Positions 13,205 to 14,725 of a DNA stretch of 54,079 nucleotides are shown here, one piece after another (position 1 is the stretch's first letter; each line of letters begins with the position of its first letter). The position numbers and the translations under genes are program-made. Source of the stretch: Promethearchaeia archaeon (GTDB lineage: Archaea; Asgardarchaeota; Lokiarchaeia; Sigyniarchaeales; SOKP01); assembly GCA_029856155.1 (NCBI GenBank), contig JAHQWL010000025.1, forward strand, positions 1-54,079. The letters run 5' to 3'. The notes beneath the pieces are model-generated. The model saw nothing but the letters and a program-made list of their open reading frames with translations, searched no databases and was not told the DNA's origin.

Positions 13205-13295
13205 AATTACCTCAATATCAATTAAAATATTAAAATTTTATATTATTTTTTATAAAGATTGGACTCATGGAACTCTTCTTAAAAAATAACTTCTG

Positions 13296-13367
13296 AAATC
13301 CGAAACCGGGCAAGGTAGGTCAGCTTACTACTAACATTTTTTAGCAAGATTCATTCCATTCGGATTT
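13296..13367 (-). promoter_or_regulatory. SECIS-like 3'UTR hairpin (eukaryote/Lokiarchaeia type)
   Basis: mRNA: AAAUCCGAA-UGGA-AUGAA-UCUUGCU-AAAAAA-UGUUAGU-AGUAAGC-UGAC-CUACCUUGCCCGGU-UUCGGAUUU. It has a 9-bp basal stem, an AUGA/UGA core, a short upper stem and an apical A run, and begins at the stop codon of a UGA-containing ORF. Confidence 0.7.
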
Positions 13368-13627
13368 TATATTAAAATTATTGAGAATACATACGATTGT
13401 TCAAGAGTATAATTGACAAGATAATTTATCAGTGAATTTAATATTTGAGGAGGAATTATAAAGCCGCCTCATCCACAACCACCATCAGTTATTTCATTAT
13501 TCAACGCATTGACAAAGAGTATGATAACTATTGTGATTATTGCTGCTAGGCTAATTACACTGAAAAGAATAATTATCAATTTTTTGAAATTTCTGCTCCT
13601 TTTTGGATTTAACATAGCTTCTCTCAT
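13367..13627 (-). CDS. Candidate small membrane selenoprotein, 86 aa, Sec at codon 53 (not in the ORF track)
   Basis: MREAMLNPKRSRNFKKLIIILFSVISLAAIITIVIILFVNALNNEITDGGCG-U(TGA 13471-13469)-GGFIIPPQILNSLINYLVNYTLEQSYVFSIILI*; SECIS-like element directly downstream. Alternative start at ATG 13615. Confidence 0.65.
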
Positions 13628-13717
13628 TTTCATATATTATGAGTAAATTTATTTATTTTTTATTAGTGATTTCTACTTAAAAATTTTAACTTAGCTATTA
13701 ATTCTTTTCAAATTCTT

Positions 13718-14725
13718 TTAAGAGCTTTTTCCTTCATTATGTCTAAAAATAGTATATATTCCAACTATAAGTGTAAAAACCATAAAGAAAATCCACAATA
13801 TTTGGGCTTGAAGTACTAATCCGGGTATGATATCCGCTGGTGGATTAAGTTCTCTTAAAATCTCAATGATCTGAACGATAAGTTTCATTAAAATTATAAA
13901 TAATGCTACTGTATCGGCTCTAAAGATTTTAAGTTTTTCTTTTATATAATCTACTCTATCATAAATAGATCCAATTATGTATAAAAACAGAAGAAAATCA
14001 ATAACAAATGCTAAGAGGTCATAACCAGCAGCATCAAGGAATATAAATTCTGCCCAAAGATCAATAATTATATAGAGAACATAAAAGAATGTTAGTAAAT
14101 TAAAGAATGAGATATATGCCGCAAATTTCTTTGTAAATAATAATCTAATTAATAAGATTCCTAATAATGTTAGGCCTATCAAGAATAGATTAAAAAAGAC
14201 TCTTGCTAAACTTTGAACGTATGGATTAGCAAAACTAAGGAAAAATCTCATGGTTAAAGATGTGAACCACCAGCTTAGAAGGAAAAAAACCACAAATTCT
14301 ATTATCCGTGTTAATATTCTGGAACCTTTTTTACTATAAAAGTAATCGTCAACTTTAATAGAAGTATCCATACAAAATTTAAAGGCGAAAAATGCAGTAA
14401 TAATAATATTAGCTATATAACAAAAAATTGTAAAAATGTTGATAATCCCTCCAAAAATATACATAACAGGAAGAGTCAATACAACTGATATGATGATTAT
14501 AATTACCCCCATCTTATCAATAGGTATAACAAATGAAATAATAAATAAAATGAATGTAAATCCAGCTAAAATCGCTAGGAATATCAAAAAATATCTTTTG
14601 AAGGTAATATTTGGAAACAAATCAATTACAAATGCAAATAAAAACCAACAAACAATAAACAGGATAACAATAACTAATAAAATTCTCTTTTTCGAAAGAT
14701 TCTTTAAACCAGAAATAAATCTCAT
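13718..14725 (-). CDS. Polytopic membrane protein, unknown function
   Basis: About 10 hydrophobic segments; no recognised motif. Confidence 0.8.
   Translation of the reverse strand: MRFISGLKNLSKKRILLVIVILFIVCWFLFAFVIDLFPNITFKRYFLIFLAILAGFTFILFIISFVIPIDKMGVIIIIISVVLTLPVMYIFGGIINIFTIFCYIANIIITAFFAFKFCMDTSIKVDDYFYSKKGSRILTRIIEFVVFFLLSWWFTSLTMRFFLSFANPYVQSLARVFFNLFLIGLTLLGILLIRLLFTKKFAAYISFFNLLTFFYVLYIIIDLWAEFIFLDAAGYDLLAFVIDFLLFLYIIGSIYDRVDYIKEKLKIFRADTVALFIILMKLIVQIIEILRELNPPADIIPGLVLQAQILWIFFMVFTLIVGIYTIFRHNEGKSS

Follow-up and report, generated by a model that had tools for sequence, protein, structure and literature searches.

A 54,079-nt stretch of a Lokiarchaeia genome (Promethearchaeia archaeon, contig JAHQWL010000025.1 of assembly GCA_029856155.1), referred to here in its whole length as the window, carries on its minus strand a small gene that is probably a genuine selenoprotein gene. 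Insertion of selenocysteine (Sec) at its in-frame UGA appears highly likely on comparative grounds, because the TGA is conserved in orthologues, the reading frame and the protein similarity continue beyond it, and a covarying Sec insertion sequence of the lokiarchaeal type (lokiSECIS, a SECIS element) lies at the stop codon that follows. The Sec reading of this codon, first proposed in the original prediction from the letters of the window, is thereby upheld.

The frame reads MKMREAML...DGGCG-TGA-GGF...IILI-TAA and contains one in-frame TGA, after which 33 sense codons lead to the TAA at 13369-13367 (Table 1). The open reading frame, the transmembrane (TM) helix, the D-G-G-C-G-TGA-G-G segment, the 33 codons to TAA and the 9-bp basal stem described in the original prediction were all found in place. 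The frame had also been called unannotated. This holds for the read-through form but not for the N-terminal 54 codons, which public protein collections hold as a 54-aa product ending at the TGA, with neither name nor domain. The second ATG, at 13627, corresponds to M3, which is nearly invariant and is the start methionine in most orthologues. Because M3 aligns with the orthologue start, the product is probably 86 residues long, with the Sec at position 53; residues are numbered here from the first ATG (88 residues, Sec55).

Conservation was evaluated at increasing taxonomic depth. When the read-through protein was searched in six frames against 24 sampled genomes of the genus, 14 of them yielded a homologue, and each match contained exactly one TGA. 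The profile built from these 14 homologues (A1) matched 71 of the 154 genomes of the order; the genus contributed 44 of its 53 genomes to this count, and a second genus 18 of its 42. A single TGA was present in nearly all of these matches, with an added stop where the tail was shorter. The 400 genomes searched across the phylum gave weak matches beyond the taxonomic family, most of them limited to the helix; the exception was a pair of short forms (TM-DGGGGU[GV]C followed by 8 residues) from another family of the same class.

In an alignment of 30 members (A3), no column other than the Sec codon is invariant, and the TGA was kept in 48 of the 48 members examined. The alignment runs on past the TGA to a conserved C-terminus ending in LI, with similarity on both sides of the codon, a check that the original prediction had proposed. 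Over the 30 loci, frame 0 stayed open after the TGA for a median of 32 codons, the remaining two frames giving 3 and 19.5, and the open frame and the protein similarity extended 24-33 codons beyond the TGA in 27 loci. The ratio of nonsynonymous to synonymous change (pN/pS) was 0.3-1.25 after the TGA and similar, 0.3-0.8, before it, the counts being too small to settle the matter. The number of residues that follow the Sec ranged from 7 to 33 across the 48 members and was only 13-20 in the second genus. In one orthologue (L041; G081:C124:47246-47485), the sequence is G-G-G-G-U-P-C-U and another in-frame TGA occurs three codons past the first; this is either a member with two Sec residues or a variant that arose in sequencing or assembly.

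The RNA element starts at the stop codon, 117 nt 3' of the UGA. To describe its structure, we used 13 orthologous 3' regions that are alignable over ~80 nt from the stop codon (alignment A2). The structure common to them consists of a 9-bp basal stem, a 3-bp stem (UGG/CCA), a 3-nt bulge (AAU), a 9-bp helix II, an 11-nt loop and a hairpin on the 3' side, with the tandem G.A/A.G pairs formed by AUGA and GA constituting a kink-turn. AUGA and GA were invariant across the 13 elements. In this structure, 84% of the alignment cells were paired, compensatory changes occurred at 15 of the 26 pairs, and none of 500 shuffles was as good; pairing fell to 30-56% in controls in which the structure was slid along the alignment. 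Helix II was paired in 90% of cells, with compensatory changes at five of its nine pairs. The folding energy of the single sequence was not significant (z = -0.9), and the case for the hairpin stands on covariation rather than on energy.

The hairpin had been predicted with the basal stem, an AUGA/GA core and an apical A run, all of which were recovered, and with a 7-bp upper stem, which is in fact 9 bp long. Beyond that description, the core forms a kink-turn whose C-stem of 3 bp covaries, and an additional mini-hairpin lies on the 3' side; compensatory changes had been proposed as a check and are those reported above. As published, a lokiSECIS has a 9-bp stem flanked directly by AUGA on its 5' side and GA on its 3' side, an apical loop of 11 nt in which A is preferred at the first five positions and the final base is G, usually after an A, and a location close to the stop codon (PMC4989117). 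Each of these features is present in the window element. In 26 of 28 loci, the stop codon and the AUGA were 11-21 nt apart.

R1, a covariance model derived from A2, scored the window element at 85 bits and produced nine matches in the 4.1-Mb genome, all downstream of TGA-containing frames. Besides the window element, three matches followed VhuD/FrhD-like genes, one followed an HdrA gene, one a Prx-like U-x-x-C gene, and three followed small TGA-containing frames. When the nine paralogous elements were aligned (A5), all four helices were common to them and 23 of the 26 pairs covaried, in an alignment that was fitted to the model and so favours the structure. The 3'-side hairpin (of the type ACCUU-GCA-AAGGU) separates the kink-turn arm from the basal stem in all nine type I SECIS elements of the genome, with compensatory variants such as CCCAU/AUGGG and GGAG/CUCC. 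It makes the element a three-way junction, and the term "three-way" is absent from PMC4989117.

The distance between UGA and AUGA was 96-117 nt in 27 of the 28 measurable loci of the genus, including where the frame stops early, as in L057 with 116 nt. The true stop in the second genus is sometimes a TGA located a few nucleotides ahead of the AUGA core, and the spacing between UGA and SECIS there must be much shorter, roughly half by estimate, because far fewer residues follow the Sec. The idea that the tail serves to keep the UGA and the SECIS a fixed distance apart was rejected for this reason, as it does not hold in general. An oligo-T terminator 3' of the SECIS was likewise rejected; it was present in only 17 of 28 loci, with no excess over chance in AT-rich DNA. 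The G+C content of the window is 29%.

That the UGA is instead a true stop, ending a 54-residue membrane peptide followed by an RNA with another role such as a C/D-box sRNA or a terminator, is in our view very improbable. The 54-aa form is what gene callers emit, and the insignificant folding energy would agree with it. Searches of Rfam in gathering and E-value modes returned no SECIS family; Rfam contains no Loki model, so this is not evidence against a SECIS. The best sub-threshold matches were C/D-box snoRNA models, of which snoR21 scored highest (24.2 bits, cut-off 45, E 0.2). A C/D-box sRNA was rejected on this score and on the position of the covarying helix, which occupies the inter-box region; the 9-bp AUGA-GA helix covaries, unlike the guide regions of C/D sRNAs. 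A true stop is further opposed by the continuation of frame and similarity past the TGA, by the single invariant position being the Sec codon, by the stop codon abutting the RNA element in nearly all loci, and by the occurrence of the same element downstream of bona fide selenoprotein genes.

Reassignment of TGA to Trp or Gly throughout the genome is, in our view, barely credible. Among 1.84 billion representative proteins, a profile search gave 31 matches, all of which either ended at the TGA or, in five full-length entries of the public collection (P0006-P0009 and P0013), had W at that codon. The W entries could be taken to favour reassignment; they were evidently called with a code in which TGA is Trp. 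Against it, 11 of the 42 long frames of the window end in TGA, which is an ordinary stop codon there, and orthologue L034 uses TGA as a genuine stop at the conserved C-terminus, beside its SECIS. Moreover, the genome is 97% complete under the standard code and contains a dedicated tRNA-SeC.

The machinery for Sec, whose presence the original prediction had asked to confirm, was found in the genome. The tRNA-SeC (62 bits, anticodon UCA) adjoins the gene for SepSecS (386 bits), and an EFSec-like factor is encoded ~4 kb away on the same contig, at 239 bits, just below the bacterial selB cut-off of 242. SelD (183 bits) has one in-frame TGA of its own. A protein of the KTI12/PSTK family, a putative PSTK or KTI12, was matched at 106 bits.

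The protein is predicted to have one TM helix, with a Kyte-Doolittle mean of 3.15 and preceded by seven Lys or Arg residues, a Gly-rich loop that holds Cys53 and Sec55, and a C-terminal helix. AlphaFold2, run on A3, gave a helix at residues 10-48 (predicted local distance difference test score, pLDDT, ~80), an unstructured loop at 49-61 (<50 near the Sec) and a helix at 62-87. In this model, the Sec loop looks flexible. The C-terminal tail is too polar to span the membrane, and the window protein lacks Lys and Arg beyond residue 18. Every member has three to seven Lys or Arg residues on the N-side of the TM helix, with a median net charge of +2.5, and is about neutral on the C-side. Based on the positive-inside rule, an N-in/C-out topology is predicted from this charge, with the Sec loop at the outer surface of the membrane.

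The Cys-x-Sec motif of the original prediction is that of 6 of the 48 members, as in the window protein, but does not describe the family. In 39 members, the Cys follows the Sec at +2 (U-x-C); the -2 form (C-x-U) belongs to the clade of the window protein, one member has the Cys at +3, and two have none. Thus, the family motif is G-G-x-G-U-x-C, and C-x-U is derived from it, the Cys having switched sides with its spacing kept. A Cys lies within three residues of the Sec in 46 of the 48 members, and other Cys residues number only 5 among the 3,534 residues counted. A Cys that switches sides fits a role that requires it to reach the Sec, as in a selenenylsulfide, and suits a fixed structural role less.

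In the explanation that we favour, the lokiSECIS would recruit an EFSec-type factor and Sec-tRNA(Sec), in line with established Sec biology; UGA55 would be decoded as Sec and translation would proceed for 33 more codons to the TAA. The product of 86-88 residues would have a basic N-terminus, one TM helix, a flexible Gly-rich Cys-Gly-Sec loop and an amphipathic C-terminal helix. The Sec and the Cys, two residues apart, would cycle between a selenol/thiol pair and a selenenylsulfide, making the protein a small membrane-tethered redox centre that may work like the Gly-Cys-Sec-Gly tail of thioredoxin reductase. Such a redox function at the membrane surface, argued by analogy, is put forward tentatively as the likeliest of the functional readings. 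It is not mutually exclusive with the two considered below and is favoured over both.

The Sec/Cys loop of a real selenoprotein might instead bind a soft metal or metalloid (Ni, Cu(I), Hg, As or Se/S species) at the membrane surface and act as a chaperone or sensor instead of a redox catalyst, which is possible but on the unlikely side. A flexible, all-Gly loop with two chalcogen ligands two residues apart would suit such binding, and metal binding would still be open to members that have only the Sec (U-P-G), for instance through dimer formation; bacterial MerT-like and metal-binding selenoproteins have been listed (PMC13188914). The window gene sits between two major facilitator superfamily (MFS) transporter genes, but these neighbours are lost beyond the closest relatives, and no metal transporter or metalloenzyme is conserved beside the gene across genera. 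One member faintly matches PF12669, the FeoB-associated Cys-rich membrane proteins (E 0.14), which share the architecture of a TM helix with a Gly/Cys tail; the match is insignificant and is confined to 1 of 30 members.

We regard as more doubtful still that the selenoprotein is an accessory subunit of a 335-aa polytopic membrane protein encoded upstream, in which the helices of the two proteins would dock and the Sec would be placed near Cys118 of the larger one. This gene was present in 21 of 30 loci, in most of them 84-104 nt upstream and on the same strand, and a SECIS lay downstream of it in 23 of 30 independently fetched loci. The 335-aa protein is far better conserved than the selenoprotein (47-81% identity), and C118, within AFFAxKxCxDxS, is nearly invariant. 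However, the linked pairs all come from one genus, so that shared descent can account for the gene order, and the linkage is limited to part of that genus: no 335-aa gene lies beside L039, the closest orthologue, and the neighbours are different in one subclade of the genus and in other genera. Divergent homologues of the 335-aa protein lack the small gene, which apparently has an AT-rich upstream region of its own. A partnership between the two proteins is possible.

Several observations weigh against the membrane-anchored redox selenoprotein that we favour. The decoding of UGA as Sec, very probably correct, is deduced from sequence comparison. Selection on the tail is weak, as judged from the pN/pS values given above with their small counts. 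The profile search of the 1.84 billion representatives found no Cys-form homologue and hence no exchange of Sec and Cys, which had been proposed as a check; a Cys form is a usual criterion for a selenoprotein gene and not a required one. With a mean pLDDT of 66, the structure model has low confidence, the topology is a prediction from charge, and the protein has no thioredoxin fold. Two members have a Sec without any Cys, which a strictly intramolecular selenenylsulfide cannot explain. Finally, no redox partner is conserved as a neighbour, and neighbours vary between genera.

Two small proteins from other Asgard classes, L060 (G193:C20) and L061 (G234:C72), have a similar basic N-terminus and helix, followed by C-x-x-x-C repeats (e.g. 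CANACGTACSNSCNDAC); neither contains a TGA. The two may represent analogues based on Cys. As relatives they were rejected, the similarity being confined to the helix.

SELENOK and SELENOS are small, single-pass membrane proteins of the endoplasmic reticulum with one N-proximal TM helix and a Sec in a Gly-rich stretch, located at the extreme C-terminus of a cytosolic Gly/Pro-rich tail with one or two residues after it. The present protein resembles them in its size, in its one N-proximal TM helix and in having its Sec in a Gly-rich, probably disordered stretch (here G-G-x-G-U-G). It differs in that its Sec lies 12-16 residues past the helix and is followed by a mostly hydrophobic or amphipathic tail, of 33 residues in the window protein, in that a vicinal Cys is usual, and in its predicted N-in/C-out orientation, which is opposite to that of SELENOK. 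Neither SelK/SelG nor Selenoprotein S of Pfam was among the matches listed for 30 members at E values up to 10, and no relative was found in the PDB. The likeness noted in the original prediction stays an analogy, and kinship is not supported. It is a long shot that the family is an obligate-Sec membrane microprotein with no Cys form anywhere and represents an Asgard forerunner, or at least the first prokaryotic counterpart, of SELENOK/SELENOS, with a membrane-surface site for selenol redox chemistry or for acyl or metal handling.

Mammalian thioredoxin reductase ends in a flexible, Gly-flanked Gly-Cys-Sec-Gly that forms a selenenylsulfide. In the present family, by contrast, one residue separates the Cys from the Sec, the Cys may be on either side, and the pair is tethered to a membrane helix rather than to a flavoenzyme; the two are not homologous. 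Proteins of PF12669 are similarly tiny, with one TM helix, a Gly/Cys-rich tail and a possibly metal-related function, but that family has no Sec and a different layout of charges. Searches of Pfam, NCBIfam and PDB sequences with the protein family found no relative, the matches, such as MauE, TMEM192 and FliL, being noise driven by the helix.

The gene shares a recoding system, an element of the lokiSECIS or Asgard type I eSECIS-like kind after the stop codon and one covariance model with the described Lokiarchaeial selenoprotein genes (HdrA-VhuD, VhuU and Prx-like; PMC4989117, PMC11227280). Over 400 Asgard genomes were searched by homology to known families by Huang, Xiao and Zhang in 2024, yielding seven families: SelD, FrhA/VhuU, HdrA, FrhD/VhuD, Prx-like, AhpF-N-like and DsbA-like (PMC11227280). 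The same list is given in a 2026 review (PMC13188914). Earlier, a lokiSECIS scan by Mariotti et al. (2016) yielded no further family (PMC4989117), and Sun et al. (2021) reported HdrA, Prx and MvhD only. The seven listed families are all soluble enzymes or subunits of such enzymes (PMC11227280, PMC13188914). In contrast, the present protein is membrane-anchored, has fewer than 90 residues and no Cys-form relatives, and belongs to none of the seven; as originally predicted, this one-helix membrane protein is unlike the listed Asgard selenoproteins, with no significant Pfam or NCBIfam match. Text searches of the literature found nothing on a membrane selenoprotein of archaea. Thus, the recoding mechanism is known and the protein family is absent from the literature searched, making it a new family that uses a known system; from the published lists, it would be the first membrane-anchored selenoprotein family of archaea.

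A search that starts from the SECIS can uncover additional selenoproteins that are specific to a lineage and truncated by gene callers at the UGA; in this genome, four of the nine type I SECIS matches belong to unlisted small proteins. The absence of Cys-containing relatives is unusual, and because of it selenium looks indispensable to the role of the protein. With ~260 nt of coding sequence and a SECIS of 72 nt, the gene also provides a minimal natural test case for a eukaryote-like SECIS that works without SBP2.

Table 1. Positions of the selenoprotein gene, its RNA element and nearby features in the window.
Feature	Position	Strand	Remarks
Selenoprotein coding frame, including TAA	13633..13367	-	88 codons from ATG 13633, 86 from ATG 13627
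In-frame UGA, probably read as Sec (Sec55; Sec53 from second ATG)	13471-13469	-	Conserved in orthologues
Predicted TM helix, residues ~19-41	13511..13579	-	Kyte-Doolittle mean 3.15; 7 K/R before helix
Gly-rich loop T-D-G-G-C-G-U-G-G-F with Cys53 and Sec55	13460..13489	-	pLDDT <50 at residues 51-58
Predicted C-terminal helix, moderately amphipathic, residues 62-87	13373..13450	-	Hydropathy 0.0-1.2, hydrophobic moment 0.35
lokiSECIS	13367-13296	-	Covariation, covariance model R1, published definition
SECIS basal stem AAAUCCGAA / UUCGGAUUU	13367-13359 / 13304-13296	-	9 perfect pairs; starts in TAA
SECIS kink-turn C-stem UGG / CCU	13358-13356 / 13319-13317	-	3 bp, covarying
SECIS AUGA	13354-13351	-	Loop is the AAU of AAUGA
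SECIS helix II (upper stem) AUCUUGCUA / UAGUAAGCU	13350-13342 / 13330-13322	-	9 bp, one U.C mismatch
SECIS apical loop AAAAAUGUUAG	13341-13331	-	11 nt; begins AAAAA, ends AG
SECIS GA	13321-13320	-	Directly 3' of helix II
SECIS 3'-side mini-hairpin	13316-13305	-	
T6 run, possible archaeal transcription stop (weakly inferred)	13281..13286	-	10 nt past SECIS
335-aa polytopic membrane protein, upstream, co-oriented	13718..14725	-	No Pfam match

The nearest atlas clusters of the 335-aa protein are from Promethearchaeota. In another genus, the neighbours of the selenoprotein gene are a TrmB-like regulator and an FGGY-type kinase. A conserved inverted repeat, TTAGGAA-n4/5-TTCCTAA followed by TAATAA, was observed ~35-55 nt before the start codon in five orthologous loci (L033, L038, L044, L049 and L051) and may be an operator or promoter element. 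Its counterpart in the window, at 13650-13690, is degenerate.

The other small TGA-containing frames that precede a lokiSECIS in this genome were of three kinds. A 102-aa frame (G000:C74:5790-6095, minus strand; L025:1552-1857) is a second unlisted candidate for a one-helix membrane selenoprotein; an acidic stretch is followed by C-F-U-H, and a lokiSECIS lies at the stop. Six further genomes of the genus retain its TGA; the aligned part of one weak match lacks a TGA. A 75-aa frame (G000:C103:54554-54778, minus strand; L028:1586-1810) looks like a two-helix membrane protein with V-S-U-R and has a lokiSECIS directly after it (50.7 bits); a search of 53 further genomes of the genus gave no relative, which makes this frame an orphan candidate. 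The last frame (G000:C26 ~63530-64121, plus strand; L030:994-1585) has no evident membrane helix and contains two adjacent TGA codons (D-S-G-C-U-U-E), with a SECIS at its stop codon.

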